64,000 nt of DNA from an uncultured Spirochaetota bacterium (GTDB lineage: Bacteria > Spirochaetota > Spirochaetia > SZUA-6 > Fen-1364). Below, piece by piece: positions 4,588 through 60,394 of the stretch; the first letter of the stretch is position 1, and every line of letters begins with the position of its first letter. A program made the translations under genes and the position numbers. The notes beneath the pieces were generated by a model. It ran no database searches. It had not been told where the DNA came from and was given only the letters and a program-made list of their open reading frames with translations. Location: positions 32,001 through 96,000 of the forward strand of contig CAWAHW010000001.1 of assembly GCA_963781885.1 (NCBI GenBank), in the 5' to 3' direction.

Positions 4588-4593
4588 TCCCCT

Positions 4594-4959
4594 TCAGGGC
4601 GTCACGCCGGCCCCTGCGGGCCAGCTTTCCTGGATGTTCTGCAGTATTTCCTCATAGGGATACGCGCCGGTGAGCTTCATCCGCGCCTCCCCTTTCCAGA
4701 AGAGCATGATCGTGGGGATGCCCTGGACCTCATAGATCTGCGCGACGTGAGGCCTCCGGTCGACATTCACCTTGACGGTGAGGATACGCCCCGCGTATTC
4801 GTGCGCCAGCCGCTCGATAGCAGGCGAGACGATCCGGCAGGGGCCGCACCACTCGGCCCAGAAGTCCGCCAGCACGGGCATCTCTGACACGCGGATGAGC
4901 TCGAGAAATGAACCGGGCAGCCCCGCCACGTGATGATCGCCCATTGCTGCTGCATCCAT
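4594..4959 (-). CDS. trxA: thioredoxin
   Basis: DFWAEWCGPC, VKVNVD, VQGIPT; start codon uncertain (4959 or 4944). Confidence 0.92.
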   Translation of the reverse strand: MDAAAMGDHHVAGLPGSFLELIRVSEMPVLADFWAEWCGPCRIVSPAIERLAHEYAGRILTVKVNVDRRPHVAQIYEVQGIPTIMLFWKGEARMKLTGAYPYEEILQNIQESWPAGAGVTP

Positions 4960-5045
4960 TCCGAGCTTGAAGATACTCACGGGATGGCTGCGATGCAAAC
5001 CGCCCACCTCTTGCTCGCGCCGGCTCCTGCCGCTACATTATCGGC

Positions 5046-5639
5046 ATGCCAGCAGCCGTTCACGTTCCCACCCGGCAGGAGGCAATGGAGCTTTTCCTGC
5101 AGCACAATTCGAGCGAAAGCCTGCGCGGCCATGCCCTCTCCGTGGAGGCGGTCATGCGCCACTATGCGCGGCTCTACGGCGAGGACGAGGAGAAGTGGGG
5201 GATCATCGGCCTCGTCCACGATATCGACTACGAGCATTTCCCCGAGCAGCACTGCCGCAAGAGCGTGGAAATCCTCACCGAGGCGGGATGGCCACCCGAG
5301 TACATCCACGCCGTGGTGAGCCACGGGTGGGGAATATGCTCCGAGGTGGAGCCGACCGAGAGGATGGAGAAGGTCCTCTATGCCGTTGACGAGCTCACGG
5401 GACTCGTGAAGGCATCCGCGCTCATGCGGCCGTCGCGGAGCGTCCTGGACATAGAAGCCTCATCCGTGAAGAAGAAGTGGAAAGATGCCCGGTTCGCCGC
5501 CGGCGTGAACAGGTCCGTCATCGAGAAGGGCGCGGCCATGATGGGCGTGGAGATCGGCGATCTCATCGCCCAGACGATCGCCGGGATGCGGAACGTGGCA
5601 GCGCAGATCGGCCTGGCGGGAGCGGCCGCACAATCCTGA
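5046..5639 (+). CDS. HDIG/HD-domain metal-dependent hydrolase
   Basis: HALSVEAVM, GLVHDIDYE, AVDELTG, KKKWKD.RFAAGVNR. Confidence 0.88.
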   Translation: MPAAVHVPTRQEAMELFLQHNSSESLRGHALSVEAVMRHYARLYGEDEEKWGIIGLVHDIDYEHFPEQHCRKSVEILTEAGWPPEYIHAVVSHGWGICSEVEPTERMEKVLYAVDELTGLVKASALMRPSRSVLDIEASSVKKKWKDARFAAGVNRSVIEKGAAMMGVEIGDLIAQTIAGMRNVAAQIGLAGAAAQS

Positions 5640-11795: not shown

Positions 11796-12737
11796 TCAAG
11801 CGCGCAACCGAGCGGCCTCGCTTTCCCGTGCGCGCATGAACCGCTCCGCCTCGTCCCGCGACGGGATGCCCTGCTGCCCGCCGGGCCGCGTCGCCTTGCA
11901 TGCCGCCACCGCGGAGGCGAAGCGGACGCGCGGCGCGACGGACATTCCCCGCACGAGGCCCGCGGCGTAGACGCCGTGAAAGACATCGCCGCAGCCGTTG
12001 GTATCGACCTCGGTGACGGCAAAGGACGGCTGGTGGTAGACCGTCCCCGGCTCCTCGGCGCTCACGTACCAGGACCCCTCGCCGCTCTTCGTGACGACGA
12101 CCGCCGCACGGTCATTCCGCCAGAGCGCCCGCGCGATGCCGGGCCCGTCGGCGATCCCCGTGATCCGGCGGGCGAAATCGAAGGGTAGGATGAGGTGATC
12201 GGAGAGCGACAAGAGATCGGCAAAAAGAGGCCCCGGATCGCGCTCGAGATCGGCCACGACGGGCACGCCGGCCGCGCGCGCGATGCGTGCCGCGCGCACC
12301 ATCCCCTCCAGTCCCACGTGATCGACCAGCAAGACGCGCGCGGCGGCGATGACTGTCGAAGCCGGCAGCCGGGGGTCCGCACCCACGACATGGTCCGCTT
12401 CAAAGAGAATGGTGCGAGTCGTTGCGCGCGTGTCCACGAGTATCGTCGAATGGAAAGGACGCGTGCCCTCGGCGTGCACGAGGTGCTCGACGGACACCCC
12501 TTCAGTGGCGAAGTTCGAGATGATCAGGCGCGACAGCTCGTCAGTACCGAGGCTGCCCGCGTACGCGCACGTGCAGCCCATGCGGCGCGCGGCCACCAGG
12601 GCGGTTCCCGCGATGCCCCCCGCGTGTCTTTCGCGCCTCTGGACCGGCATCTTGGTGTCCGGATCTGGATACTCATCGAGGTAGAGGATGTCGTCCACCG
12701 CCACGGCGCCAAGACCGAGCACATCGAGGGAGGCCAT
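11796..12737 (-). CDS. PfkB/ribokinase-family carbohydrate kinase
   Basis: GGIAGTALVAARRMG; VDTNGCGDVFHG signature. Confidence 0.92.
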   Translation of the reverse strand: MASLDVLGLGAVAVDDILYLDEYPDPDTKMPVQRRERHAGGIAGTALVAARRMGCTCAYAGSLGTDELSRLIISNFATEGVSVEHLVHAEGTRPFHSTILVDTRATTRTILFEADHVVGADPRLPASTVIAAARVLLVDHVGLEGMVRAARIARAAGVPVVADLERDPGPLFADLLSLSDHLILPFDFARRITGIADGPGIARALWRNDRAAVVVTKSGEGSWYVSAEEPGTVYHQPSFAVTEVDTNGCGDVFHGVYAAGLVRGMSVAPRVRFASAVAACKATRPGGQQGIPSRDEAERFMRARESEAARLRA

Positions 12738-12792
12738 GGCCCGGTAGTGTGGGAGGAATGCACCGCGGGGTCAAGGACGGGGCGTGGTGCCG

Positions 12793-14106
12793 TTACTTGC
12801 GCGAGAGGGCGGATCCGGCAAGCGCGCCATCCTGATCGAGCGGCGCGGGGCTCAACTTGTAGGGGAAGCGGCTGGTGAGCAGGGAATCGATCGCCAGGTA
12901 CGAGGCACCGAGGAGACCGGCGTCTTCGCCAAGGGCCGACACGGCGATCGTGGGCGCCTTGTACGGCACGATGCGCTCCACGTTCTTTCGCAGCGGCTCG
13001 ATGAAGAGCTCCTGCAGGCCGGGCAATCGGCAGAGGTCCCCGCCGAGCACGAGGATCTGGGGATTCAAGATCAGGATAAGGTTGATGATGGCAATCGACA
13101 GGGACTCGACGGTTTGGTCGATGATCTGCCGCGCGGTCGCGTCATTCCGGAGCGCCGCGTCGCAGACGTGGGCAGCCGTGATCTGCTCGATGTCCCCGCC
13201 GGCCAGCTCGACAATGAGCGTCGCACCATCCCGGCGCGCAGCCTCGATTGCTTTGTGCCGGATCCCTTCGATGGAGGCGAGGCTTTCGAGGTATCCTTTG
13301 TTCCGCGCCTGGTAGCTCAGCCCTTCGGCGCCCAGCAGGGTGAAGCCCAGCTCGCCGGAGGCTCCATTCCCGCCGCGGTAAACGTGGCCGTCGACGATGA
13401 TGCCGGCACCGATGCCATTGCTCACTTCCACGAAGACGACGTCGCTGTAGTTCTGCGCCACGCCGAAGTTCACCTCGGCGAGCGCCGACAGCTTCACGAT
13501 ATTCTCCACATAGACGGGGACGTGGTAGCGCTTCTCCAGCGTCTCCGAGAGGTTGACGCCTTCCAGGCTGTCGTACAGCGGTGTCGAGATGCGCGGATAG
13601 AGCGCGCTGCTGGTCGCGGCGGGAATGCCCACGCACACCGCCTTGAGTCTGCCCGCCTTCCGTCGCGGGCGCGCGCTCCCGTCATCGTGGAGGCTGAGGA
13701 TACGGTCGATCTCTGCAATGAGCTCCGGCTCTACTTTCGTGAGCTCGGAGAACTTGAAACCGCTGTACTTGTTGATGATACGTCCCCGGAAATCGGAGAT
13801 CGCGATCTTCGTGCGCTCCTTGATCAGGTCGATGCCGATGACAATTCCCTTCTGGGTATTCACGGCAAGCTGGGAGGCCTTCTTTCCCCTGCCGGTGGTG
13901 ATCTTGTCCGTCTCCACGACGAATCCGTCGCTGATGAGGTGCTCGATCACCCGAGAGACGGCGGGGGCGCTGATGCCGAGGTCCTTGGCGATCTTTGCGC
14001 GATAGACGAGGTCATTGGCGCAGAGGTAGTGGAAAATGATCGATTGATTTATCTCATTCTGAATATTCGCGTTGATGGTCGTGGATACCCGCAGACCCTT
14101 CATCAT
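12793..14106 (-). CDS. ROK-family transcriptional repressor
   Basis: N-terminal HTH (RAKIAKDLGISAPAVSRVI); VENIVKLSALAE, GIGAGII, GASGELG, GYLESLAS. Confidence 0.93.
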   Translation of the reverse strand: MMKGLRVSTTINANIQNEINQSIIFHYLCANDLVYRAKIAKDLGISAPAVSRVIEHLISDGFVVETDKITTGRGKKASQLAVNTQKGIVIGIDLIKERTKIAISDFRGRIINKYSGFKFSELTKVEPELIAEIDRILSLHDDGSARPRRKAGRLKAVCVGIPAATSSALYPRISTPLYDSLEGVNLSETLEKRYHVPVYVENIVKLSALAEVNFGVAQNYSDVVFVEVSNGIGAGIIVDGHVYRGGNGASGELGFTLLGAEGLSYQARNKGYLESLASIEGIRHKAIEAARRDGATLIVELAGGDIEQITAAHVCDAALRNDATARQIIDQTVESLSIAIINLILILNPQILVLGGDLCRLPGLQELFIEPLRKNVERIVPYKAPTIAVSALGEDAGLLGASYLAIDSLLTSRFPYKLSPAPLDQDGALAGSALSRK

Positions 14107-14118
14107 ACTTCTTACCTT

Positions 14119-14147
14119 ATGGTAACGTAATGTAACTTGAGAATCAA
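14119..14147 (-). promoter_or_regulatory. promoter of ROK gene with degenerate operator copy in spacer
   Basis: Minus strand TTGATT-N17-TACCAT; TAACGTAATGTAACT (14123-14137) matches 12/15 of the motif at 20596-20610 and 25683-25697. Confidence 0.55.
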
Positions 14148-14170
14148 GTGCGGCCGCGCCCCGCGGCGGC

Positions 14171-14929
14171 CTATTGCGTCATGATGTCGCCCGCCGTTGC
14201 CAGGAGATGCTCGCCGGTGACGTGGTCCGACAGATGGCTGGCGAAAAACAGCGCGACGCGCGCAATATCCTCAGGCTGCGCGATCCTTTTCAGCGCAGTC
14301 GCCTCGGCGTATTCGTGCTCCTTCTCTGCGGTGGTGAGGAAGGTGCCCTTGAGCATGGGCGTGAGGATCGCACCAGGACAGATGGCATTACAATAGATGC
14401 CGTACCTGCCCATGTCCTTGGCGATGACGCGCGTGAGCCCGATGAGGGCCGCTTTCGAGGAGCCATAGGCGGTTTCATCGGGAAAGGCCGCGACACCCGA
14501 ATCGGAGGCGATATTGACGATCTTGCATCCCCCCTTGGCGACCATGCAGCGGCACACCTCCTGCATGAGGAAGAAGGGGCCCTTCACGTTCACATCGTGG
14601 TGCAGGTCCCAGATCTCCTCCGTCATCTCGAAAAGCGGCGTCGGCCTGCACACACCGGCACAGTTCACAAGGATATCGATGCGGCCGAGCTCTGCATCTA
14701 CCGATCGCACGAGGGTCGCGATCTCCGTGCAATTCCTGACATCGAGCCTGCGAAACAGGGTCTTTCGTCCCGTGCTCTGCGCGATCGCCGCGGCCGCCGC
14801 CCCGCCGGCGGAGGCCTTCATGTCGCAGAGGACCACCACCGCACCCTCGCGCGAGAAAAGATCGGCGATGCCCTCTCCCAAGCCCTGGGCGGCGCCTGTC
14901 ACGAGCGCGATCTTGTTTTCAAGCAACAT
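14171..14929 (-). CDS. SDR-family NAD(P)-dependent oxidoreductase
   Basis: VTGAAQGLG, LVNCAG, YGSSK, NAICPG; SD GGAGG before ATG 14929. Confidence 0.93.
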   Translation of the reverse strand: MLLENKIALVTGAAQGLGEGIADLFSREGAVVVLCDMKASAGGAAAAAIAQSTGRKTLFRRLDVRNCTEIATLVRSVDAELGRIDILVNCAGVCRPTPLFEMTEEIWDLHHDVNVKGPFFLMQEVCRCMVAKGGCKIVNIASDSGVAAFPDETAYGSSKAALIGLTRVIAKDMGRYGIYCNAICPGAILTPMLKGTFLTTAEKEHEYAEATALKRIAQPEDIARVALFFASHLSDHVTGEHLLATAGDIMTQ

Positions 14930-14955
14930 CCAGGTCTCCTCCACGCGGCAGGCGC

Positions 14956-15990
14956 TTAATCGGCCGCGTACGCGAGCTGCTTTCCTTCCGTGCTGGATCT
15001 GCGGATGAGGTCGAGTATCTTCACCGTCTTCGCGGCCTCATACATGGTGGCGTAGGGCCGGGGCTCGCCGCGCAGAAACGCGACGAGGTCGTGATAAAAG
15101 CCGCCCTCAAGACCGGACTCCGCCACGCCGGCCATGCGGATCTTCTGGGTCTCTTTCCTGCCGTCGAGACTTACGAAGCAGACCTCCGCTTCATCCCACA
15201 CCGGGTCGCTCTTTCCCTTGACCTCCAGCGTGCCCCGGGAGCCGATGATGTACCATCGTGGGGCGCTGATGCGCGCGTTGTTGCCGACCTCCATCTGGCA
15301 GATGGTCTGGCCGCCAAAACGCAGGTCCGCGAAGAAGTAGTCGTCCACTTCCTTGCTCCAGACGCCGCTCTGCAGGATGCCATACACGGAAACAGGATCA
15401 CGGCCCATGAGGACAAGGAGCTGGTCCACGAGGTGCGGTCCCCAGTCCAGGAGGATGCCGCCGCCGTATTTCGCCTTGATGCGCCAGGGGTTTGCCATGC
15501 CTTCGATGCCCCAGGCGGGCCACCCCTCGTCGCACAGCATGACCTTCGATTGGATCAGGAGAATGTCGCCGAGCTTCCCCGACGCGATGAGGTCCTGGAC
15601 CAGCAGGAAATCCCTGTCCCAGCGGCTGGAATGGTGCACGAGCAGCTTCCCGCCGTTCTTCTCCGCTGCCGCGATCATCCGCCGGGTGCTCTCGTAGCTC
15701 ATGCTCATCGGCTTTTCGACGATGACATTCTTCTTCTTTTCAAGAGCCTTGATGGTAAGCGATTCATGCATTTCGTTCGTCGTCGTGATGACGACCCACT
15801 CCACGCCATCGGCATCGAGCAGCTTGTCCACGTCCGTGAAAGAGGCGGCGTGGTACTTCTCTTTCATCTCCGCGAGGCGTGCCTCATTCTTGTCGCAGAC
15901 GGCAACGAGGGCGAGCTCCTTGTTCTTCGCGATCCAGCCGGCGTGAAAGCCGCCCATTTTCCCGATGCCGACGATCCCCATACCCACCAT
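14956..15990 (-). CDS. Gfo/Idh/MocA-family oxidoreductase
   Basis: GIVGIGKMG, VIVEKPM, GGGILLDWGPHLVD. Confidence 0.92.
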   Translation of the reverse strand: MVGMGIVGIGKMGGFHAGWIAKNKELALVAVCDKNEARLAEMKEKYHAASFTDVDKLLDADGVEWVVITTTNEMHESLTIKALEKKKNVIVEKPMSMSYESTRRMIAAAEKNGGKLLVHHSSRWDRDFLLVQDLIASGKLGDILLIQSKVMLCDEGWPAWGIEGMANPWRIKAKYGGGILLDWGPHLVDQLLVLMGRDPVSVYGILQSGVWSKEVDDYFFADLRFGGQTICQMEVGNNARISAPRWYIIGSRGTLEVKGKSDPVWDEAEVCFVSLDGRKETQKIRMAGVAESGLEGGFYHDLVAFLRGEPRPYATMYEAAKTVKILDLIRRSSTEGKQLAYAAD

Positions 15991-16024
15991 GCGGCAAGCC
16001 TCCTTTGATGGAACGACGGCCCAC

Positions 16025-16276
16025 CTACACGGTGTCGCCTTCATCCCCGATCAGCGCGATCACGGTATTCACCGGTACCTCGTCGCCGGGCTGCGCGAGC
16101 AGCTTCTTCACGTACCCGGCCGCGAATGATTCCACTGTCTGGGTTGTCTTGTCGGTTTCCACTTCCACCAACGGCTCACCGACCGCCACCGGGTCCCCGA
16201 CCTTTTTCAGCCATTGCACGATGGTGCCCGTTTCCATGGTGAGGCCGATCTTCGCGAGCTTTACTTCCACGATCAT
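16025..16276 (-). CDS. free-standing lipoyl-carrier protein (83 aa)
   Basis: MIVEVKLAKIGLTMETGTIVQWLKKVGD...EVETDKT; ends in TAG right after the domain, with the next gene 35 nt downstream. Confidence 0.9.
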   Translation of the reverse strand: MIVEVKLAKIGLTMETGTIVQWLKKVGDPVAVGEPLVEVETDKTTQTVESFAAGYVKKLLAQPGDEVPVNTVIALIGDEGDTV

Positions 16277-16293
16277 GACGGGGTCCTCCGCAT

Positions 16294-17274
16294 TCAGCCC
16301 TGCTCCACAGTGGCGCGCAGGCTCTTTTCGATGTCCGCTTCGCTGGGCAGGACCTCGTTTTCCAGCACCGCGAGGGTTCCCAGCGGTGCCCATTTCGCCC
16401 CGACGCGCGCCACAGGTGCCTTCAGGTCCCGGAAGCCCTCCTCCGCGATGACCGCGGCGACCTCCCCGCCGAAGCCGCCGCTCTTGGGCGCTTCATGGAG
16501 GATCACGACCCTGCCGGTCTTCTTCACCGATTCCAGTACGGTGGCCTTGTCCAGCGGGACGAGTGAACGCAGGTCCACGACCTCGACGGAGACGCCGTCC
16601 TTCTCCAGCGCGCGCGCAACCTTCAGGGCCCGGTGGAGCATGTACGAGTAGGTGATCAACGTGACGTCGCTGCCGCCCTTCTTCACTTCGGCCTTGCCCA
16701 ACGGGATGCTGTACTCCTCCGCAGGGACATCGCCTTTCATCGCGTAGAGCGCCTTGTGGGTGAAAAAAACGACGGGGTTCTGATCCGCGAGTGCGGCCTT
16801 CATCATGCCCTTGGCGTCGGAGGGGGTGGCGGGGGCGACAACCTTCAGCCCGGGGGTGTTGCCGAACCAGACCTCGAGGCTCTGGGAATGCTGCGGCCCC
16901 GCCTGGATGAAGCCGCCGAGCGCCGTCATGATCACGATGGGGACTTTTGCCTGTCCGCCGAACATGTAGGAGAACTTGGCCGCCTGGTTCACCACCTGGT
17001 CCATGCACATCGCCATGAAGTCGGAGAAGGGAATGTCCGCGATGGCGCGGCATCCCGTGATGGCGGCACCGATGGCGCACCCGATGATCGCCTGCTCGGA
17101 GATGGGCGCATCCCGCACCCTGTCCGCGCCGAACATGCGGAACATGTCATGGCTGAGCTGAAACTCCCCGCCGTACTTGCCGACGTCGTAGCCGATGAGA
17201 AAGAGCTTGTCGTCCTTCGTCATCTCCTCGATCATCGCCTGGTTTATTGCGTCCCGATACATCATCGTTGCCAT
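16294..17274 (-). CDS. ThDP-dependent dehydrogenase E1 beta subunit (PdhB/AcoB-like)
   Basis: DAPISEQAIIG.AIGAA, DQVVNQAAK, QHSQSLE, VDLRSLVPLD, SVKKTGR. Confidence 0.93.
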   Translation of the reverse strand: MATMMYRDAINQAMIEEMTKDDKLFLIGYDVGKYGGEFQLSHDMFRMFGADRVRDAPISEQAIIGCAIGAAITGCRAIADIPFSDFMAMCMDQVVNQAAKFSYMFGGQAKVPIVIMTALGGFIQAGPQHSQSLEVWFGNTPGLKVVAPATPSDAKGMMKAALADQNPVVFFTHKALYAMKGDVPAEEYSIPLGKAEVKKGGSDVTLITYSYMLHRALKVARALEKDGVSVEVVDLRSLVPLDKATVLESVKKTGRVVILHEAPKSGGFGGEVAAVIAEEGFRDLKAPVARVGAKWAPLGTLAVLENEVLPSEADIEKSLRATVEQG

Positions 17275-17283
17275 TCGCTTCTC

Positions 17284-18258
17284 CTACTCGGCGTAGACGT
17301 ACTGCAGCGCATCCTCGGGTCCCACCCGGGGGCTTCCGCGCGCGAACTCAACCGCGTCGTCCACGCACGTCTGGGTCTTCTCCCGCAGCTTCCTGACGTC
17401 CTCCTCCCGCAGGATCGACGCATCGATCATGCGCTTCTCGAAATTGGCCAGGGCATCCCGGCGCTGCTGCTCCTCGATCTCTTCCTTTGACCGCACGTCC
17501 TTGTCGCCCTCCCAGTGGGGATGCTGCCGGGTCGTCATGCAGTTGAGGAGCGTCGGGCCCTTGCCGCTGCGCGCCCGTTCCACGGCCGTCTTCGCCGCTT
17601 CATAGACCTCGGTCACGTCGTTGCCGTCGAGGTCGAAGCCGGGGATGCCGTAGCCAACGGCGCGGTCGCCAAGGTGCGTGAGCGCCTTGCACACGTCGGC
17701 CGTGTTCACGCCGCAGGCGACCATGTTGTTCTCACAGACGAATACGACGGGAAGGTCCCACGAGGCTGCCATGTTGATGGCTTCGTGGAATGTGCCCTGG
17801 TTGGAGGCGCCGTCGCCGAAGAAGGAAGCGACCACCTGGCGGGTCTTCCGCAGCCGGATGGAATATGCGGCGCCGACCGCGATGGGATTTCCGTCGCCCA
17901 CGATGCCATTTGCCCCCAGCACGCCGATGCTGAAATCGGCCACGTGCAGCGATCCGCTGCGGCCCTTGCAGGAGCCGGTCTTCCGGCCGAAAAGCTCGGC
18001 CATCATCTCCTTCAGGTCGCCGCCTTTGGCGATCATGTGGCCGTGACCGCGATGGGTGCTCGTGACGTAGTCGTCCTTGTTCAGGTTCAGGCACACGCCG
18101 GTGGGCACGGCTTCCTGCCCGATGGACAGGTGCGTGAAGCCTTCCTGCTCCCCTGCCCGGAAAACCTTCGACTGCGTCGATTCAAAAAGCCTTATGCGGA
18201 GCATCCCCTCGTACATCTTCAGGACGAGGTCCCGGTCGTACTCTTTCAGCGATCTCAC
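17284..18258 (-). CDS. ThDP-dependent dehydrogenase E1 alpha subunit (PdhA/AcoA-like)
   Basis: HLSIGQEA, STHRGHGH, GDGASNQG...VCENN ThDP motif, GPTLL. Confidence 0.93.
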   Translation of the reverse strand: MRSLKEYDRDLVLKMYEGMLRIRLFESTQSKVFRAGEQEGFTHLSIGQEAVPTGVCLNLNKDDYVTSTHRGHGHMIAKGGDLKEMMAELFGRKTGSCKGRSGSLHVADFSIGVLGANGIVGDGNPIAVGAAYSIRLRKTRQVVASFFGDGASNQGTFHEAINMAASWDLPVVFVCENNMVACGVNTADVCKALTHLGDRAVGYGIPGFDLDGNDVTEVYEAAKTAVERARSGKGPTLLNCMTTRQHPHWEGDKDVRSKEEIEEQQRRDALANFEKRMIDASILREEDVRKLREKTQTCVDDAVEFARGSPRVGPEDALQYVYAE

Positions 18259-18283
18259 GAAATCCCCCTTCTGCGATGCCCTT

Positions 18284-19193
18284 TCAGGGCATTGCCTTCC
18301 GCCAGTACTCGACGGACGCCCTCAGGTCGTCCAGAACCTGGTCTTCGCGCGCTTCGAATGCCGAGATGATTTCAAGCTCAAGGTATGCCTGCTGGATGCC
18401 CGCCGCGGCGATGGCATCGAGGACCTTCTTCGGCTGGATGATGCCGATCTTGTTGAACTCCGCGGTGAACGGCCAGTGCCGGTCGCCTTTGCCGTCCGTC
18501 TGCTGGAGATGGATGATGGGGCAGCGCGCGCCGATCCTTCTGATCCACGCGTAGGGATCCAGGTCTTCGCCACTTGCCTCGAAATTGCAGGCGTGACCGA
18601 CGTCGACGAGGTACCGGATGGGAAGCGGCGCCCCGTCGTTTACGAAATCGTACATCCTCTCGGCGTCCGCGATCGTCGCGGGCCACTCCCGGCGTACGGG
18701 GTTTGCCTCCCAGATGAGGTAGGAGAGCCCGCTTCTGCTTCCCGATCTGCCCGATGGCATGCAGGGAATCGCGCAGACAGGAGAGGATATAGTCTCGCCG
18801 TTGCGCGTTGCCGTAGTCCTTCATGGAAAGCGCGCCAAGGGGCCCGCCCACACCGTCCGCGCCCAGGTCGCCGGCCATGACCGCGGCATTCTGGAACCAG
18901 TCCTGTGCGCTGGCGCGCATGCCCTGGTCAGGGCCCAGCAACAGGCTCATGTGATAACCGACGCCGCCGGTGAGGAGACTCTGAATGCGCACGCCCTGCT
19001 GGGCCGCGGCCTCCTTGATCCTCTGCGTCTGGATGCCGCGGACAGGCTCGATGGTGTGGGGGTCGAGCAGGTCGAGATCGAATTGCGCCACGGTGAGCCC
19101 CAGATCATGCCGGACGATCCGCAGCCATTCTTCAGGCTCGGGCCAGCGCTTCACGGCAAAATAATTGTTGATGCCCAGGACGAGCTTCGCCAT
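18284..19193 (-). CDS. xylose-isomerase-like TIM-barrel sugar(-phosphate) epimerase, EryC-like; one frameshift near 18731
   Basis: LGINNYFAVKRWPEP..W; frame switches at QIGKQK/GLSYLIWE; DVGH, IHLQQTDG..DRHWPF, LELE. Confidence 0.8.
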
Positions 19194-19240
19194 TTCAGGC
19201 CTCCTTTATGAGTGCGTCCCGCTCCGCGCGATACGGCCCG

Positions 19241-19579
19241 TCATGCGTACGGAGGGCTCAGGATGGCGAGGAACTCCAGGTCCACCGTGCCCGTGTTCAT
19301 CACGGAGTGGTATTCGTTGGAGTCGGCGCAGACGATCGTCCCCGGGGCGACGTCGAACGTCTGGCCGCCGACCTTGGCCTTGCCCGCGCCTTTCAGGAAG
19401 TAGTAGACCTCGATGGATTCATGCCGGTCGTCGGCAATCTCGCCCGTCGGGGCCATGCGGCAGTGATGGAAACTGATCTTGTCGGTGTCCTTGCTCGTCA
19501 GGATATCCCGGACGAAAAGGAGCTTGAAGGCTTCCGCCTTACTCTCTGCCACATCCTTCAGGAAAATCCGCTTGTTCAT
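19241..19579 (-). CDS. cupin-domain protein
   Basis: HESIEVYYFLKGAG...PG.....SNEYHSVMNTG. Confidence 0.85.
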   Translation of the reverse strand: MNKRIFLKDVAESKAEAFKLLFVRDILTSKDTDKISFHHCRMAPTGEIADDRHESIEVYYFLKGAGKAKVGGQTFDVAPGTIVCADSNEYHSVMNTGTVDLEFLAILSPPYA

Positions 19580-19651
19580 GCGCCTCTCCTTTGCGTAGCG
19601 GCGGAGGCCGGCCTCCGCGCCCGGAACAGATCATATCCGGTCATGCGCGGC

Positions 19652-20581
19652 CTAGTGCATGCTCGCCGCGCAGGTTCCGACGGCCGGCCGATAGAAGTTG
19701 AACTGGACATTCGGGTGCGCCGCCAGAAGCGACATGGGGACGGCGGTATCAGCGATGCCCTTGGATATCATGAGCGTCGTCAGGCGCATGCCAAAGGGGT
19801 TGTCATGCACGCCGGCATGCCAGATGGAAACCTTCTCCGCCTTCCACGTCTCCCGCGGCCCGACGGTGATGGCCTTGGTAGGGATGCCCGATACCTGGCC
19901 GCCGCCGGATGTCCGCGCGTTCTGGATCACGGTCATGGGGTGAAGATTGACGACGCGCGCGGAAAGCTTGCGGTAGTCCTCGGGGCATGGAGGCTCATCG
20001 GCCCAGGCCCCTTCGCGCTGCGGGGGGTCGTTGAAGGCCCAGTGCTTCACCTCCCCCTGTCCGCCCTGCATGACGAGGCATCGAACCTGGTCGTAGGAGC
20101 GGGTGTACGCGTCCATGTTGTCGGCTTTCAGGAAGTGCAGATGGGAGTCGGGCATCCGCAGCTTCTCATCGATGCGCCGGAAGCAGAGATCGAGGTCCGC
20201 GCGCGCAAAGCTGAGCGGATGGGTGACGGGGAGCTCCCGACCGTCGACGTACCATTCGTCCATGGCCCAGAAGTGAGCGTTGCGGACGCTGATGCCAAGG
20301 TCGTTGACGATGCGGGCTACCAGTGGAAGCTGTTCGGTGGGCCCGATCGGCCCACAAATCCCCGTCGGCTGGGAGTCGGTCGCCTGTCTCCAGGCTTGCA
20401 CGTACTCCAGCGCCTCGGAAAGATAGAAAGATTCCAGCGTGTCGTAGAACTGCACGGCAAAGCCGGGGCGCTGGAGCGCCGCAAGATCTTCCGCGTTCAG
20501 CCGCGCAGCGTCGTCCAAGATTTCCCTGTCCAGCGTCGTATAATCCCACCAACCCTTGGCGACCTTGCTCTGCTCCCGCAT
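19652..20581 (-). CDS. glucosamine-6-phosphate deaminase/isomerase-like (NagB fold, divergent) protein
   Basis: [48 protein letters not shown]. Confidence 0.8.
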
Positions 20582-20592
20582 GCGATCCTCTC

Positions 20593-20636
20593 TTTTAACG
20601 TACTGTTAGTAAATCACGTCGCCCTTGTCCTGTCAA
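20593..20636 (-). promoter_or_regulatory. sigma70-type promoter + operator, copy 1 (enzyme operon)
   Basis: TTGACA(20636-20631)-N17-TTTACT with extended TG; 18-mer TTTTAACGTACTGTTAGT at 20593-20610 (TAAC-N5-GTTA dyad). Confidence 0.8.
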
Positions 20637-20665
20637 GGCATCCTGGCCATGCCCGTCTGCGGCAG

Positions 20666-21772
20666 CTACCTCGACAGGATGGACGGCATCATCACGGTTT
20701 TTCCTTCTGCATCGAATCCCGTGAGCGGCCACGCCCCTGCCTGCGTAAGGATCTCCGATGAGCCCTTGCGCGAAAGGCAGGTATCTTCGGTGTTCACACC
20801 GGTGATCGTGACGAACCAGTTGAATGCCTGGCCCTCCGTCACGGCCGCTTCCGGGTCAAGGCTCAACGTCGAGTCATTCGGGATGTAGCCGGTGATTCCG
20901 CCCGGGAAATGCTCGTGCCATTCGTTTTCAAAACCCAGCTCCCGGTAGAGACGCTTCTGCGTCGTGAAAATGTCGGCAAAGCGCGTCCCCGGCACGGAGC
21001 GCGCAATGCACGTGGCCGCGATGGTGCTTGCCGCCGCGAATCTGCTCTCCAAATCGCGGTCGATTCTGTCGCCAAAACGCATCATGCGCGTGAGGGGGAC
21101 ATGAAGCCCGTGCTTCCGCGGGCAGACGACGAGCACCACGGTCTCCCGGATCTTTTTCTGCGACGGAACCGGATGCCGGTAGCGGGGGATGCGCTCATCG
21201 CTTCCGACAAGGACAACGGTGGAGACGAATCCCTTGAGGGCGAACGCGGAAACGAGCATGTTCTCAACTTCCGTTTCCGCCATCCCCGGGGCGATCCGGT
21301 CCGCGACGGAACGCAGGATCGACTCTGACTCGGCGGCGATAACTCTGTAACGCGCCGTTTCCGCTTCCGTGAGCGGATAGATGAGCCGGCAGAAGTCGCG
21401 GGGACGCCGCACGGCCCCGGGAAGCGCGATGTCAGAAAGGAAGCGTCCGATTCCCGTCTGGTCGCGGACGATCTGCTCCCGCGATTTTCCGTCCCACCGG
21501 GTCGTCACCAGATCGAATCCGAGCCCCGCCATCTCCTCGTCCTGGTTTCGCTCACCGTCCATGACGTACGCCACCAGAGTCTTCCTGGCGAGATCGATGA
21601 CGGCGATGGCATCGGACTCCGCGGAGGTGATGAGCACGCTGCTGCGCCCGCCGCAGGAAAGCCAGGAAAAGTTCGCCTGCGTGCCGATGACCACGGCATC
21701 CATGCCGCTCTCATCGAGATACGCGTGAATGCGCCGTTCCTTTTCCCTGAACTCATCCGTCCGAGCGCTCAT
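20666..21772 (-). CDS. M24-family (aminopeptidase P/creatinase fold) hydrolase
   Basis: NFSWLSCGG, DERI.RYRHP, EWHEHFPGGITGY, EDT near C-terminus. Confidence 0.82.
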   Translation of the reverse strand: MSARTDEFREKERRIHAYLDESGMDAVVIGTQANFSWLSCGGRSSVLITSAESDAIAVIDLARKTLVAYVMDGERNQDEEMAGLGFDLVTTRWDGKSREQIVRDQTGIGRFLSDIALPGAVRRPRDFCRLIYPLTEAETARYRVIAAESESILRSVADRIAPGMAETEVENMLVSAFALKGFVSTVVLVGSDERIPRYRHPVPSQKKIRETVVLVVCPRKHGLHVPLTRMMRFGDRIDRDLESRFAAASTIAATCIARSVPGTRFADIFTTQKRLYRELGFENEWHEHFPGGITGYIPNDSTLSLDPEAAVTEGQAFNWFVTITGVNTEDTCLSRKGSSEILTQAGAWPLTGFDAEGKTVMMPSILSR

Positions 21773-21795
21773 CCCTCTCTCCCATCCCGCCCGGG

Positions 21796-21832
21796 CGTCG
21801 TCAGCCGTCCGCGCAGGGCGGAGGTGACGACG
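21796..21832 (-). other. intergenic stem-loop after solute-binding protein gene
   Basis: CGTCGTCA..TCCGC/GCGGA..TGACGACG; no U tract, position typical of an mRNA-stabilising hairpin. Confidence 0.5.
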
Positions 21833-21855
21833 TCTGGCTTCACGCGGTTGCCCGC

Positions 21856-22892
21856 CTATTGCTTGACCTTCTTTTCCGCTGCCGAGTAGTACTTGATGAC
21901 CTCATCAACGTTGTCCTTGGTCACAAGGACAAGACCCGAGTCGATCGAGCGCGGCATCCAGTTGTTCGTCCAAGGATCCAGGCCGCCGGCCGGATCGCGT
22001 CGTTGTGCCACATGTAGAGCAGGGAAAGCGCCATGTACTCCATGACGTCGTACTTTTCGATCGTGATGAGCTGCACTTTCCCGTTCTTGATGTTGTTGTA
22101 GAAGTCGAGACCGGCTTCATTGACCGTCACGATCAGCTTTCCTGCTTTGCCCGCCTCATCAAGCGCGGAGACGATGCCGGGGGGAGACTCGGAGTCGAGG
22201 CCGAAGATTCCCGTGAGGTCCCTGTTCGCGCTCAGGATCGCCGCGGTCTTCTGCGCGGCGGTGGCGGCGTTGGACTCATTGTCTTCCTCCGCGACCACTT
22301 GGATGCCGGTGCCCTTCAGGGTATCCTTGATGCCCTGCCGCGCCTCCTGCATGTTCTCCTGCTGGATCGGGGAAAGGATGGCGACTTTTCCCGTCGCAAG
22401 GCCGCGCGCCTTGTGCTGGGCGACCTGGAACTGCGCCATCGTCACACCGAGGTTGTACCAGTTGGTGCCGACATAGCAGAGACGTTTCGAATTCGGCAAG
22501 TCACCGTCGGTGACGACGACGGGGACCTTCATGGCGATCAGCTTGTTCACCGGCTCCTGGAGCGACTGGTCCCAGCCGCCGACCACGATGACGCCGGCGG
22601 GCTTGCGCGCGCCTTCGGTTTCCACCGTCGCGATGTACGCGGCGAGATCGTCCGTCGTCGGACCCGCCTTCCGCACGATGACATTGAAGTCACGCTGGAA
22701 TGCGTCCAGCGCCGGGTAGACCCTTTCGACGAAGAGCGGCAGGCTGGAGAAGTTCGAGATCCACACGTACTCCTGCTTCGCCCGATCGGGTCCGCCGATG
22801 ACCACCTTGTCCGCCGGCGCGGCTCCCGCCACCCCCGCGGCAAGAAGCATGGACAGGATCGCCCATACTGCGGCTCGTTTCCCATTCCTCAT
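21856..22892 (-). CDS. sugar ABC transporter substrate-binding protein; one frameshift near 21986
   Basis: Signal peptide MRNGKRAAVWAILSMLLAAG; PVVVTDGDLPNSKRLCYVGTN; C-terminus IDSGLVLVTKDNV in shifted frame. Confidence 0.88.
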
Positions 22893-22975
22893 TGGTTGCC
22901 TCCTTGACGTTGTCGTTCTGGACTGGACACCGCGACTTCCTTCGCGGGTAAGATCTGTGTTCCCTCCTTTCCCGT

Positions 22976-23998
22976 CTATTTCTGCTTGCGCCCGAACTGG
23001 TCGATGCCGACGGCCACGAGCAGCACGATCCCGACCACGATGCCCTGGTAGAAAACCGGCACGCGCGAGATGATCAGGGCGTTCTGGATGAGCGACACGA
23101 ACAGGACCCCCAGGAAGGCGCCGGCCACCGTGCCCACCCCGCCGGCGAGACTCGCCCCGCCGAGGATGGCTGCCGTGATGGCGCGCAATTCGATGCCGTT
23201 GCCCGCCAGCACCACGGCGTTGCTCAAGCGCGAGGCGAGCACCGTGCCCGCGATCCCCGCGAAAAACCCCATGATCCCGAAGCCGATCAGGATGAAGAAT
23301 GGCACCTTGATCCCGGAGAGCGTTGCCGCCTTGGGATTGCTGCCGACGAAATAGAACTGTCGGAAAAATCGCGTTCGCGCGAGCAGGAACCAGCTCACGA
23401 GCACGACGATCACCATCCACCAGAAGGGGGACTGCAGGCCGAGGAAAACCGTCTGGCCCAGGGGCCGGAAGCTGTCGGGGAGATTCGCGACGCCCGACGG
23501 CGAGATGATCTGCGTCACCCCCCGCAGAATGCCCGACATCGCCAGCGTCGTGATCAGGGCGTTGATGCGCAGCTTTGTGATGATCAGGCCGTTCAGGAGA
23601 CCGATCACCAGGCCGGTGCCCAGCCCGCCGAGCACGGCGACGAGCACGGGAGCGCCCGCCTGCTTCACGAGAATCCCCGCGACAATGCCTGACAGGGCGA
23701 GGGTGGACCCCGTGGACAGGTCGAAGACGCCGCAGATAAGCAGGATGAGCATGCCCGTCGTGATGATGCCCGCCTGCGCCGTGTCCAGGAGAATGGCGGC
23801 GAAATTGTCCCAGTGCGGGAACGCGTCCGGAAACACGACGATCATGACGACCGACAGGAGCACGGTCATGACGACGAGGAGAAGGACCCTGTCGTACAGG
23901 ATGCGGCGGAAAAGCGCAGAGAGCGGGGGCGCCCGCCGCGGCCCCCCCGCCGCGATGACGCCGCTCGCGTCCCCTGTCGCTTTCCCTGTCTTCGCCAT
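22976..23998 (-). CDS. sugar ABC transporter permease (RbsC-like)
   Basis: FDLSTGS, INALITTLA, GSNPKAATLSGI, ELRAITAAILGGASLAGG.G. Confidence 0.94.
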   Translation of the reverse strand: MAKTGKATGDASGVIAAGGPRRAPPLSALFRRILYDRVLLLVVMTVLLSVVMIVVFPDAFPHWDNFAAILLDTAQAGIITTGMLILLICGVFDLSTGSTLALSGIVAGILVKQAGAPVLVAVLGGLGTGLVIGLLNGLIITKLRINALITTLAMSGILRGVTQIISPSGVANLPDSFRPLGQTVFLGLQSPFWWMVIVVLVSWFLLARTRFFRQFYFVGSNPKAATLSGIKVPFFILIGFGIMGFFAGIAGTVLASRLSNAVVLAGNGIELRAITAAILGGASLAGGVGTVAGAFLGVLFVSLIQNALIISRVPVFYQGIVVGIVLLVAVGIDQFGRKQK

Positions 23999-24000
23999 GT

Positions 24001-25563
24001 TCACACTGTCCTCCCTGCGGGTGGTACGGCCTTTTTCGGCGTCGCCAACTGGAGAATGGTCACCTCGTCCGCGTCCTGCGCGCTCATCTCGCCGACGGTG
24101 CGCCCCTCCGCCATCACGACAATGCGATGCGCGAGCGCGAGCACCTCGGGCAGGTCAGACGAAACGACAAGAAGAGCGGTGCCGGTTTTCACCAGCCCGC
24201 GCAGGATTTCATACAATTCAGCCTTCGCGCCGACATCCACGCCGCGCGTCGGCTCGTCGACGATCAGGAGCTTCGGCTTCCGCGAAAGCCACTTGCCGAC
24301 AAGGACTTTCTGCTGGTTTCCGCCGCTCAGGTACATCACCTCGCGGTCGATGGAGGGCGTCACGATGTGGAGGGAATCCGTCACCTCCTGCGCCAGCTGC
24401 CGCACTTTCTGCGCCACGACGACGCCGTTCCGGCTCACCAGACCCATATTCGTGACCGAAATGTTCCGGGCGACGCTCATGGCGAGGAACAATCCCTGCT
24501 CCCGTCTCTCTTCGGGCACCATGCCGATGCTGGCCTTCATCGCCTGCGACGGATGACCGGGGGCGATTTCCACACCGCTCAACCGCACGCGGCCGGAAAT
24601 GCGTCTCCGCATGCCGAATATCGTTTCGCAGAGCTCGGTCCGTCCGGCGCCCACAAGCCCCGCCAGACAGACGATTTCACCGGCGCGGACCTCGAAGGAG
24701 GCATGATTCACGCCGGGAGCGACGAGGTCCTCCACCTCCAGAACCGGGAGCCCCCCGGGGCCTGGGCCCTGCACGCTGCGCGCGAAAGACAGCTCGCGGC
24801 CGACCTCCAGGCGGATCAGCTCGTCCGGCGTCGTCCCCTTGATGGAGCAGACACCCGTCACTTTGCCATCCTTGAGGACGGTCACCCGGTCTGCGACCTC
24901 GAAGACTTCGGCGAGACGGTGCGTCACGTAGACGATCGCCACGCCGCGCGTCGCGAGGCGGTGCATGTTTTTCGCAAGATTGCGCGCCTCGCTCACCGTG
25001 AGAGACGAGGTCGGCTCGTCGAGAATCAGGACGCGCACCTGCTGGGAAAGGGCTTTCGCGATCTCCACCAGCTGCCGCTGGCTGGGAGACAGGTTGACCA
25101 CGAGCGTGGCGGGGTCGATGACGACATCGAGATCCTGCAGGAGCTGCCGGGTCTGGCGGAACATCTCCTTGGTATCGATAACGCCGAATCGCCGGACAGG
25201 CTGGCGGCCGGCAAAAATGTTCTCGGCGACGCTGAGGGTCGGAAAGAGGCTGCCTTCTTGGAACACCATGGCCACCCCTGCCCTCTCGGCGGCTTTTTCA
25301 TCCTCCGGAGTGTAAGCGCGGCCATCAAGCTCCATGTGCCCGCAGTCCGGCGGATAGACGCCGGCGACGATCTGCATCAGGGTCGACTTCCCGGCACCGT
25401 TTTCGCCCACCATCGCGTGGATTTCCCCGGGCAGCACCTCGATTGTCACATTGTCGAGAGCCTTCACGCCGGGAAATGACTTGCTGATGCCCGATGCCCG
25501 CAGGCGCGGCTGCCTCTCTGGGCCGGATTCTGGCACGTTTCGCGACTGGTCCTTTCCATCCAT
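24001..25563 (-). CDS. sugar ABC transporter ATP-binding protein (RbsA-like, two NBDs)
   Basis: GENGAGKST, LILDEPT, LSGGNQQKV, DEPTRGVDVGAK. Confidence 0.95.
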   Translation of the reverse strand: MDGKDQSRNVPESGPERQPRLRASGISKSFPGVKALDNVTIEVLPGEIHAMVGENGAGKSTLMQIVAGVYPPDCGHMELDGRAYTPEDEKAAERAGVAMVFQEGSLFPTLSVAENIFAGRQPVRRFGVIDTKEMFRQTRQLLQDLDVVIDPATLVVNLSPSQRQLVEIAKALSQQVRVLILDEPTSSLTVSEARNLAKNMHRLATRGVAIVYVTHRLAEVFEVADRVTVLKDGKVTGVCSIKGTTPDELIRLEVGRELSFARSVQGPGPGGLPVLEVEDLVAPGVNHASFEVRAGEIVCLAGLVGAGRTELCETIFGMRRRISGRVRLSGVEIAPGHPSQAMKASIGMVPEERREQGLFLAMSVARNISVTNMGLVSRNGVVVAQKVRQLAQEVTDSLHIVTPSIDREVMYLSGGNQQKVLVGKWLSRKPKLLIVDEPTRGVDVGAKAELYEILRGLVKTGTALLVVSSDLPEVLALAHRIVVMAEGRTVGEMSAQDADEVTILQLATPKKAVPPAGRTV

Positions 25564-25679
25564 CAGTGCACAACTCCTTGCGGAGAAAGCGCCCGCCGTT
25601 TCAGCGCTCTTCCCCATTCCGCGCAGGCCCCAAGCGGCCAAAGCCTTGCCGTACCCTTCAAGGATCGGATACGTTTTTG

Positions 25680-37722: not shown

Positions 37723-38409
37723 ATGTCCCCGGCAGCCCGTGACGGTCTCGGCCTCATCGCCTCGTACGCGTTTGTGTTCGGATTCATCGGCGCCGCGACG
37801 CTTCTGGTGAGGCAGAAGGTGCTGCAGCCCGCCGCCAGCCGCAAGGTGATCCATATCGGCGTGGCGCACTGGTGGCTCATCGCGATGGCCCTGATGGACG
37901 ATCCCTGGGTGACATCGGTGGGACCGCTCAGCTTCATCTGCATCAACGCGCTTGACATCCGCCATCGTTTCCTCCCCGCCATGGACGAGGGCGCGGACGC
38001 GCGCAACTGGGGGACCGTCTACTTTCCCGTTTCCCTCCTCATCCTCGTGAACCTCTGCTGGCGCGGCGTGATGCCGACCTGGATCGGGGGCATGGCCGTG
38101 CTGGTCCTCGGGTGGGGCGACGGGCTTGCCGCGCTGATCGGCGAAGGAAGCCGCGGGCCGGCTTTCCGTGTCTGGCACGGAAGGAAAAGCCTCGCGGGGA
38201 CGGCGGCGATGTGTGCGGCGTCATTCATCGTGGCGCTGGTCTTCATCCTTGCTTTTTCTTCCCGCGGCGGCTCCGTGCCTTCCACCGCGGGCATCGCGGC
38301 CCTGATCGCGTGCGCCGCCACGGCCGTGGAGCTCGTGACGCCCCTGGGCATCGACAATATCACGGTTCCGCTTGCGGTCGCCGGCATGGCGTGGGCGCTT
38401 TTTTCATGA
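37723..38409 (+). CDS. SEC59/VTE5-like (dolichol/phytol kinase-type) membrane kinase
   Basis: RKVIHIGV, GTVYFP, GWGDGLAALIG, KSLAGT, GIDNITVP. Confidence 0.85.
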   Translation: MSPAARDGLGLIASYAFVFGFIGAATLLVRQKVLQPAASRKVIHIGVAHWWLIAMALMDDPWVTSVGPLSFICINALDIRHRFLPAMDEGADARNWGTVYFPVSLLILVNLCWRGVMPTWIGGMAVLVLGWGDGLAALIGEGSRGPAFRVWHGRKSLAGTAAMCAASFIVALVFILAFSSRGGSVPSTAGIAALIACAATAVELVTPLGIDNITVPLAVAGMAWALFS

Positions 38410-39251
38410 GCTTTCCGCTTCTCCTCGCCATCGGTCTTGCCGTGAATGCCGCGGCGGCGCTCCTGACCCTCTGGCGCGGCTCCGTCGATGCAGAGGGCGC
38501 GGCAGCGGGAATCGTGGTGGGCGCCCTGATCTTCGCCTGCGGCGGGCCGCTTTTCTGGCTCCTGCTCATGGCATTCTTCGTTTCCTCCACGGCGCTCGGG
38601 TACATCCGCAAAAATGAAAGGGAGTGGCTGAAAGCCATCCACGAGAAGGGAAGCCGGCGTGATGCATTCCAGGTGCTCGCCAACGGCGGCATGGGCATGC
38701 TCACCGCCGTCCTCTACAAGCTCACCGCGAACCCCGCCTGGGCCGCCGCGTTTGCCGTTTCCTTCGCGTCATCCACGGCAGACACCTGGGCGAGCGAGCT
38801 TGGCGTGCTTTCCCGCGCGTCACCCGTGTCCCTGCTCACGTTCCGCCCCGTGCCGCGCGGCGTGTCCGGCGGCGTGAGCTTTCCCGGCACCCTCATCGCG
38901 CTTGCCGGGGCATTCTTCATCGCCGTGCTCTTTGCCGGCGTGGACGCCGTGCGGCACGCGCTGCCCGCGGGATTCCTGAAAGTACTCGCGGTGGTGACGG
39001 CGGCCGGCTTTGTCGGCTCGATCGTGGACAGCCTCCTCGGTGCCACGGTGCAGGCGCAATACGCCGCGGCGCCTGGTGAAGGCCCCTCCCCCGCTCCTGC
39101 GCCCGCGGTGACCGAGCGCAGGCTCTCGCCCCAGGGGCTGCCGAACCGCCTGGTGCGCGGGCTTTCATTCGTCAACAACGACGTCGTCAACTTTGCAAGC
39201 TGCGCGGCGGTGACAATCGCGACGTTTCTCCTGGCGCCGCGCCTGTTCTGA
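38406..39251 (+). CDS. DUF92/TMEM19 (VTE6-like) membrane protein
   Basis: RDAFQVLANGG, ADTWASELG, G.SGGVS..G, DSLLGATVQ, NNDVVN; ATGA overlap. Confidence 0.9.
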   Translation: MSFPLLLAIGLAVNAAAALLTLWRGSVDAEGAAAGIVVGALIFACGGPLFWLLLMAFFVSSTALGYIRKNEREWLKAIHEKGSRRDAFQVLANGGMGMLTAVLYKLTANPAWAAAFAVSFASSTADTWASELGVLSRASPVSLLTFRPVPRGVSGGVSFPGTLIALAGAFFIAVLFAGVDAVRHALPAGFLKVLAVVTAAGFVGSIVDSLLGATVQAQYAAAPGEGPSPAPAPAVTERRLSPQGLPNRLVRGLSFVNNDVVNFASCAAVTIATFLLAPRLF

Positions 39252-39302
39252 GCCAGACCGCCGTGCGTTGACTTCGCGTCGGCCCGGCTTCACACTCTGA
39301 AT

Positions 39303-60279: not shown

Positions 60280-60394
60280 CAAAGGATTCCCGCACTGACG
60301 CGCCTCCCCGGCTGATCCCAGCAGTAATTGGCGAGGTGTCCCGGTGATTTGTCTCATTTGGACCGGTGGCATACCTTGATCTTTCATATGCCTC

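Follow-up and report, generated by a model that had tools for sequence, protein, structure and literature searches.

The textbook 2-oxoacid and acetoin dehydrogenases are organized by an E2 core that holds E1 and E3 and guides the swinging lipoyl arm. Here we describe an Aco-type dehydrogenase module in which E2 is truncated to its lipoyl domain, found in a 64,000-nt stretch of DNA from an uncultured Spirochaetota bacterium (hereafter the window; positions 32001-96000 of contig C1 of genome G000, a long-read assembly of 4.64 Mb in seven contigs, 92.6% complete). Separation of a lipoyl domain from its acyltransferase has been reported for the OdhA/KGD enzymes of actinobacteria (Corynebacterium, Mycobacterium), which rely on the lipoyl groups of E2p (AceF) in trans (PMC10415282). 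The two arrangements are alike in having lipoyl domain and acyltransferase on separate polypeptides and one shared E3; in the actinobacterial enzymes the catalytic domain is fused to E1, the lipoyl domain sits on a full E2p and the substrate is a 2-oxoacid of central metabolism, whereas the window module has a free lipoyl domain, no known dedicated catalytic domain and presumably a product of a sugar operon. OdhA shows that a catalytic domain can draw on lipoyl groups carried by a different protein (PMC10415282).

The closest published chemistry is the glycolyl transfer of QncN/QncL, in which the acyltransferase domain is retained (PMC6335953): in the QncN/QncL/QncM (and SclQ1-4) systems a ThDP (thiamine diphosphate)-dependent E1-like enzyme moves a C2 glycolyl unit from ketose phosphates via a lipoyl group, and a lipoyl-plus-acyltransferase protein and an acyl carrier protein (ACP) are kept within nonribosomal peptide synthetase (NRPS) clusters. 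The window, compared with these systems by description only, has no acyltransferase domain (PF00198), and its operon proteins are of catabolic or transport types as against a biosynthetic cluster. We scanned the 15 operon proteins (11796-25641) with Pfam and NCBIfam; no ACP or NRPS domain was among their Pfam matches, although no search aimed at ACP was made. GcvH and LbpA are likewise small free lipoylated carriers between separate enzymes, lipoylation of the window carrier being predicted, but they belong to another family, while the window carrier matches only E2-type lipoyl models and descends from E2. The 'lipoyl carrier protein' of a Pelobacter genome paper was considered as a parallel and dropped, being GcvH-like and unrelated. 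A full-text literature search found no account of sugar catabolism in which E1 alpha/beta works with a free lipoyl protein derived from E2, and PMC8305020 contained nothing on the subject.

The module consists of three minus-strand genes, given here in the order of transcription:

17284-18258, minus strand: E1 alpha, ThDP-binding, AcoA/PdhA type, 324 aa (Pfam E1_dh, 2e-78)
16294-17274, minus strand: E1 beta, 326 aa (Pfam Transket_pyr, 4.9e-39, and Transketolase_C, 1.4e-38)
16025-16276, minus strand: free-standing lipoyl-domain protein, 83 aa (Pfam Biotin_lipoyl, 3.5e-19)

A preliminary description of this DNA had noted that E1 beta is followed by an 83-aa, lipoyl-only open reading frame (ORF) with an ETDK motif and a clean end, and that the 34 nt before the Gfo/Idh/MocA gene leave no room for a hidden E2 core. 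Both points held. The lipoyl gene has its own GGAGGA ribosome-binding site, a TAG stop and a conserved length; the spacer to the Gfo gene is exactly 34 nt and clean, and the Gfo start, ATG at 15990, is preceded by AAGGAGG and matches the N-termini of Gfo orthologues. The window also lacks E2 and E3, as first stated: the E2 catalytic family PF00198 had no match in it, the sole match on C1 lying at 4035-4907, and the E3 model TIGR01350 had none either, C1 giving one 22-bit match at 592499. The carrier motif reads VETDK, with K43 as the lipoyl lysine. This residue lies in an E2-type lipoyl domain (PF00364), with both the domain match and the D-K motif at the hairpin present. The best NCBIfam and PDB matches of the carrier are all N-terminal lipoyl domains of E2, and the Pfam scan, which would have shown GcvH-family membership, returned Biotin_lipoyl alone. 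Against NF011457, the model of AcoC-type E2 with an alpha/beta-hydrolase, the carrier covers only positions 2-81 of 372 and scores 80.5 bits against a cut-off of 307.

The search for E1 alpha orthologues covered 92 genomes belonging to the order and 401 sampled from the phylum. Their spread is patchy, 8 of the 92 order genomes and 4 of the 401 sampled phylum genomes having one (G000 is in both counts). Six genomes of the sister family f6 and three of family f26 carry orthologues that are 64-67% identical to the window E1 alpha. The only genome of the same genus with an orthologue is G010 (E1 alpha 73% identical), and here E1 alpha and E1 beta are again followed by a lipoyl protein, of 87 aa, and a stop. 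In the two sister families, by contrast, a full E2 of 394-431 aa follows E1 beta in five of the seven orthologous loci that are readable (G065, G073, G078, G267 and G218), and in the other two (G080 and G081) E2 is split into two or three frames; in G079 and G161 the gene after E1 beta is cut off by contig ends. The lipoyl domains of the orthologous full-length E2 are 59-65% identical to the window carrier, about the divergence of E1 alpha itself. A tblastn search of the window and the G010 contig with three orthologous E2 proteins recovered the lipoyl part alone and no further E2 remnant, even at E<=10. Because the related loci hold a full-length E2 at the same place, the carrier is an E2 remnant and not a GcvH/LbpA-like carrier of separate origin. 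From these alignments we conclude that the carrier is an E2 stripped cleanly of its linker, subunit-binding and catalytic domains in the lineage leading to this genus. Full-length E2 genes in related genomes had also been named in advance as a sign of local deletion or misassembly; such genes do exist, in the five loci listed above, but the artefact was not borne out, and the truncation is old and conserved.

The main value of the finding lies in these orthologues with and without the E2 core. They form a natural before/after pair, in which two sister families keep a full E2 beside the orthologous E1 and this genus has the lipoyl domain alone, and which makes it testable which parts of E2 are truly needed. 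The pair is also a ready control for the question of whether a lipoyl domain, once free, can move between an E1 in solution and E2 and E3 proteins that are shared.

Conservation of the carrier is not confined to the two genomes. A protein search restricted to 45-146 aa recovered 14 metagenomic proteins (90%-identity clusters, from several sources) of 83-85 aa that are 64-84% identical to it, one of them encoded on a contig of 170 kb. All 16 carrier proteins, from the window, G010 and the metagenomes, terminate within 0-5 residues of each other, right after the lipoyl domain, and E40, D42 and K43 are invariant in 24/24 aligned lipoyl sequences. Between the window and G010 the proportions of non-synonymous and synonymous differences (pN and pS) are 0.23 and 0.81 for the lipoyl gene, compared with 0.16-0.17 and 0.83-0.89 for the E1 genes; synonymous sites are saturated, so that no dN/dS ratio is given. 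These figures indicate that the carrier is a stable gene form under selection, in which amino-acid change is clearly constrained. The present annotation of such 83-aa genes as "pyruvate dehydrogenase E2 component" is a misleading name.

To place the E2-less state, we inspected related loci more widely. Among the best 80 loci from other phyla (E1 alpha 47-55% identical), 70 have a full E2, three are cut by the locus end and seven have no lipoyl ORF in the available DNA; a lipoyl-only short ORF was found in 0/80. E3 usually comes after E2 in these Aco-type loci, which include that of Clostridium magnum, whose aco system has reportedly been characterized by experiment. The metagenome scan, in which the closest E1 alpha was 55% identical at best, gave no clear lipoyl-only case in 80 loci (51 with a full E2, 27 without a lipoyl ORF in the available DNA, one cut and one unclear). 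The family to which the window belongs has three paralogous E1 pairs (loci L116, L117 and L118, genomes G024, G014 and G022; E1 alpha 47-48% identical) after which comes a lipoyl domain of 74-85 aa with a stop, the ORFs being 79-134 aa long. Placed on the tree of E1 alpha, the lipoyl-only state requires two to four origins.

The preliminary description had proposed an E1 phylogeny. In the resulting FastTree, built from 111 E1 alpha sequences, a single clade with an SH-like support of 100 unites the window with G010 and all six f6 sequences; it is nested in the Aco-type radiation, nearly all members of which have a full E2. The three sequences from f26 turned up only afterwards and are absent from this tree. 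E1 alpha scores 320.3 bits against TIGR03182, for which the curated pyruvate dehydrogenase (PDH) cut-off is 393.85, and E1 beta scores 352.8 bits against the subfamily model NF006667, above the cut-off of 321. The closest solved relative of E1 alpha is human PDH E1 alpha (2e-54), whose loop TYRYHGHSMSD aligns to TTRQHPHWEGD here. This loop, singled out early on as unusual, is indeed so: its catalytic His is invariant in 111/111 E1 alpha sequences, the window included, while the change from Gly to Pro at position 247 occurs only in the window and its G010 orthologue, among the 111 aligned sequences and again among 197. The replacement of the aromatic residue (Tyr/Phe/Trp) by Thr does not go with E2 loss: Thr or Ala also stands at this place in two f26 orthologues whose E2 is full-length. 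At further columns conserved in at least 90% of relatives, Ala52 to Pro in E1 alpha and Glu172 to Thr/Gly and Ala126 to Gly in E1 beta are found only in the two E2-less orthologues. E1 beta also has Asn in place of His139, a change that it has in common with G010 alone; 90% of 177 relatives have His in this column. The His of the QHSQ motif at position 129 of E1 beta, which we take to correspond to the His that acts in catalysis in the Geobacillus and human enzymes, is retained. Overall, the module resembles the Aco system (AcoA/AcoB, AcoC, AcoL) and heterotetrameric PDH in E1 alpha/beta domain architecture, catalytic His and E2-type lipoyl domain. It differs from both in lacking the E2 subunit-binding and catalytic domains and E3 in cis, in its setting within a sugar-transport and oxidoreductase operon, in the loop Pro that replaces a near-invariant Gly, and in an E1 alpha below the PDH equivalog cut-off.

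A genome-wide search for E2, E3 and lipoate ligases, also proposed in the preliminary description, revealed that G000 is well provided with possible partners in trans. Five other E2 genes have both lipoyl and catalytic parts (one with a frame disruption near its 3' end), a single true E3 at C4:674355-675725 (519 bits against a cut-off of 408.8) adjoins the E2 at C4:673 kb, and the lipoylation machinery comprises LipA and two LplA/LipB-type genes. Since one E3 must already serve five E2 systems, the lack of a local E3 is normal for this genome; contrary to its earlier use as evidence it carries no weight, and the only unusual point of the module is the absent E2 core. A lone E2 catalytic-domain ORF at C1:4002-4934 (310 aa, DHRAVD motif, lipoyl and subunit-binding domains both absent), 28 kb ahead of the window and 44 kb upstream of the module, was examined as a partner and discarded. 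It shares 24% identity with the E2 cores of the orthologous loci, lies in a stretch of 45% GC (contig, 63%) next to transposase-like ORFs, has homologues in just two other genomes of the 92 (G013 and G082), both without an E1 orthologue and with unrelated neighbours, and has no homologue in G010 (89% complete). A second small biotinyl/lipoyl ORF, at C2:1082781, was discarded as a carrier because it is AccB and adjoins biotin carboxylase. An AcoC-type hydrolase acting in trans was also dropped, the matches to the hydrolase part being generic and elsewhere in the genome, with none in the window.

G000 has a second orphan E1 alpha/beta pair, at C2:1548833-1550815, with no lipoyl gene alongside. 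Inspected by eye, its surroundings hold aminotransferase, epimerase, nucleotidyltransferase and methyltransferase genes, as in a sugar-nucleotide or polysaccharide cluster, and the pair probably has a role in branched-chain sugar biosynthesis.

The explanation that we prefer, and to which we give about an even chance of being correct, is that a sugar-derived hydroxyketone is cleaved by the Aco-type E1, which passes the acyl group to the free lipoyl domain of its own module, and that an E2 and E3 shared with other systems complete the reaction in trans. An AcoA/AcoB-like ThDP enzyme would have been recruited to a sugar/polyol catabolic operon, and its E2 trimmed to the cognate lipoyl domain in this genus. 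The Gfo and SDR (short-chain dehydrogenase) enzymes, together with the TIM-barrel enzyme, would convert the imported sugar into a 2-hydroxyketone or 1,2-diketone; E1 alpha/beta would break the C-C bond beside the carbonyl, freeing an aldehyde fragment, and pass the ThDP-bound fragment reductively to lipoyl-lysine K43 of the 83-aa protein. The acyl-dihydrolipoyl carrier would then diffuse to the catalytic core of one of the five other E2 proteins to give acyl-CoA, and the single E3 would re-oxidize it. The substrate class is proposed by analogy with acetoin cleavage, and the acyl group may be acetyl, glycolyl or longer. E1 enzymes generally recognize only the lipoyl domain that belongs to them; E2 cores and E3 also work with foreign domains and even with free lipoamide. 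This specificity of E1 would explain why exactly the lipoyl domain was retained. The gene content, the truncation of E2, the conservation of the carrier and the E2, E3 and lipoylation genes in trans are observed directly; we infer the substrate class, the acylation of the carrier and its unloading by a trans-encoded E2. The preliminary description had suggested a diffusible carrier loaded with a glycolyl group and released by a neighbouring hydrolase or a trans-encoded enzyme; the trans-encoded finishing enzyme agrees with our explanation, while the glycolyl group and the neighbouring hydrolase found no support.

Several observations weigh against this explanation. No orthologue of the lost E2 core exists in G000, the best candidate being a paralogue at 36-38% identity, and the lipoylation and acylation of the carrier, like its acceptance by any of the five E2 cores, are predictions from sequence. 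Without a peripheral-subunit-binding domain E1 would be untethered to any core, and turnover would depend on diffusion. The lineage-specific substitutions in E1 alpha and E1 beta could reflect an altered mechanism instead of mere relocation of E2. The G010 trio lies on a 5.4-kb contig in a neighbourhood that differs from that of the window (insertion sequence and toxin-antitoxin genes). Finally, the TIM-barrel gene of the window is frame-split, and the operon may be partly decayed.

In the main rival reading, E1 loads the free carrier and the acyl group leaves without any acyltransferase, by hydrolysis, by lactonization of a polyhydroxy-acyl thioester or through an unrecognized operon enzyme (the M24-like, NagB-like and cupin proteins being candidates), with only E3 borrowed. 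We consider such a core-less lipoate shuttle rather unlikely, although the clean loss of the E2 core with no remnant and no orthologous core elsewhere in G000 speaks for it, the lineage-specific substitutions in the active-site loop of E1 would suit an altered reaction, and the lipoyl-only genes that accompany three or more further paralogous E1 pairs of the family, with two to four origins, suggest that the core is readily dispensable for this chemistry. It is opposed by the Pfam scan, which found no thioesterase or alpha/beta-hydrolase among the operon proteins, by the generic nature and distant location of the hydrolase-part matches to NF011457, and by the distribution of the candidates, since the M24-like protein also accompanies full-E2 systems and the NagB-like protein is widespread in unrelated contexts. 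If true, it would be a distinct use of lipoate in sugar C-C cleavage, arisen two to four times in this order by E2 truncation.

That the lipoyl gene is a leftover without a catalytic role, with E1 using the lipoyl domains of other E2 proteins or acting as a non-oxidative ThDP lyase or carboligase, or with the whole module decaying, seems to us quite improbable. Its descent from E2, the frame-split TIM-barrel gene next to the module, the mobile-element genes flanking the G010 orthologue and the patchy distribution of E1 alpha could all be read in this way. However, length and sequence are kept across 16 proteins down to 64% identity with the lipoyl lysine invariant, non-synonymous change is far below synonymous, the carrier has diverged about as much as domains within working E2 (63-65%, against 64-67% for E1 alpha), and the E1 genes are intact with their catalytic residues kept. 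We give hardly any credence to a deletion or collapse in the long-read assembly that removed the E2 core. The assembly does contain several frame-split genes (the window TIM-barrel gene and those at C2:542 kb, C4:671 kb and C7:398 kb), but the independent G010 genome holds the same short gene and stop, 14 independent metagenomic proteins end at the same point, and the lipoyl and Gfo genes each have a ribosome-binding site, with a clean spacer of 34 nt between them. No contig bridging the lipoyl-Gfo junction was found in one DNA run (short contigs of a relative, share 0.06).

The minus-strand operon around the module reads, in order of transcription, ABC ATPase, permease, binding protein, M24, NagB-like, cupin, TIM-barrel, E1 alpha, E1 beta, lipoyl, Gfo, SDR, ROK and PfkB. 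The genes around the module are:

24001-25641, minus strand: ABC double ATPase (Pfam ABC_tran, two copies; AraG/RbsA-like, below the cut-offs)
22976-24004, minus strand: ABC permease (Pfam BPD_transp_2; AraH-like, below the cut-off)
21921-~22892, minus strand: ABC binding protein, likely start 22892 (Pfam Peripla_BP_4)
20666-21772, minus strand: M24-family (creatinase/prolidase-fold) protein, 368 aa (Pfam Peptidase_M24, 1.6e-8)
19652-20581, minus strand: NagB/6-phosphogluconolactonase-like protein, 309 aa, no Pfam family (weak TIGR00502; PDB NagB, E 0.06)
19241-19579, minus strand: cupin, 112 aa (Pfam Cupin_2, 1e-12)
18284-19193, minus strand: TIM-barrel-like gene, split into overlapping frames at 18378-19193 and 18284-18760 (marginal AP_endonuc_2, 15.7 bits)
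14956-15990, minus strand: Gfo/Idh/MocA oxidoreductase, 344 aa (Pfam GFO_IDH_MocA and C-terminal domains)
14171-14944, minus strand: SDR, 257 aa (Pfam adh_short_C2, 2e-61)
12793-14106, minus strand: ROK-family regulator, 437 aa (Pfam ROK; NagC/Mlc-like, under their cut-offs)
11796-12737, minus strand: PfkB-family sugar kinase, 313 aa (Pfam PfkB, 2.8e-36; ribokinase-like, under its cut-off)

The predicted transporter at 21921-25641 resembles sugar importers of the ribose/arabinose type. Some of the neighbours travel with related E1 genes. Gfo orthologues (58-61% identical) adjoin the E1 alpha orthologue in G065, G073, G078, G080 and G161, SDR homologues (49-53%) adjoin E1 alpha/beta and E2 in L120 and L089, and M24 homologues (27-44%) accompany E1 alpha/beta and E2 in L017, L089 and L120 as well as in the f6 and f26 orthologous loci. 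The M24-like protein was rejected as a substitute for E2 because it occurs alongside a full E2; the PDB sequence search gave no match for it, and the Atlas returned only 'M24 family'. The NagB-like 309-aa family, for which there is no Pfam model, is present in 37 of the 92 order genomes at 63-75% identity (mostly 70-75%). It was dismissed as a dedicated unloading enzyme, being widespread and having no other operon gene beside it in 8/8 relatives' contexts inspected. With the M24-like protein beside full E2 and the NagB-like protein elsewhere in all eight relatives, a neighbouring hydrolase as the releasing enzyme, as put forward at the outset, was not sustained.

The TIM-barrel gene just upstream of E1 alpha is split, while its relatives in other genomes are intact (302-327 aa); either the frameshift is genuine or an indel was introduced by the long-read assembly. 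Dehydrogenase-complex genes are frame-split elsewhere in the assembly too, namely E1 at C2:542 kb and C4:671 kb and the 3' end of E2 at C7:398 kb. These splits are consistent with long-read indel errors, and lone frameshifts in G000 should not be taken as pseudogenes without reads.

Comparable gene sets recur at distant loci. In L089 (Bacillota) the order is GH43, Gfo, TIM, E1 alpha, E1 beta, E2, SDR, M24, E3; in L017 (Chloroflexia, Chloroflexota) it is DXR-like oxidoreductase, M24, TIM, E1 alpha/beta, SDR, ADH, NAD-kinase-like, E2, E3, LplA; and in L120, from the window's own family, it is TIM, apiosidase-like, M24, E1 alpha/beta, E2, SDR, sugar ABC transporter. The TIM-barrel genes near the related E1 alpha/beta and E2 sets are xylose-isomerase-like. 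Judging from gene content, Aco-type E1/E2 is associated across phyla with Gfo, SDR, TIM-barrel and M24-like genes in sugar operons, with no single substrate implied, an uncharacterized link that the present locus flags. The DXR-like (DRL_cat) oxidoreductase of L017, at 3979-5274, lies a few genes upstream of E1 alpha/beta; no DXR-like gene is among the 15 scanned operon proteins of the window. In the f6 loci L222, L224, L226, L227 and L229, MttB-like methyltransferases flank E1 alpha/beta and E2, and L224 also has a corrinoid-binding protein. The f6 loci further contain two M24 proteins and, in three of them, a URO-D-like gene between E1 beta and E2, a gene content that hints at a methylated substrate. 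As to base composition, the AT skew of the window is -0.26 at 38001-40000, and GC falls from about 65% to 52-57% in the final 6 kb (58001-64000).

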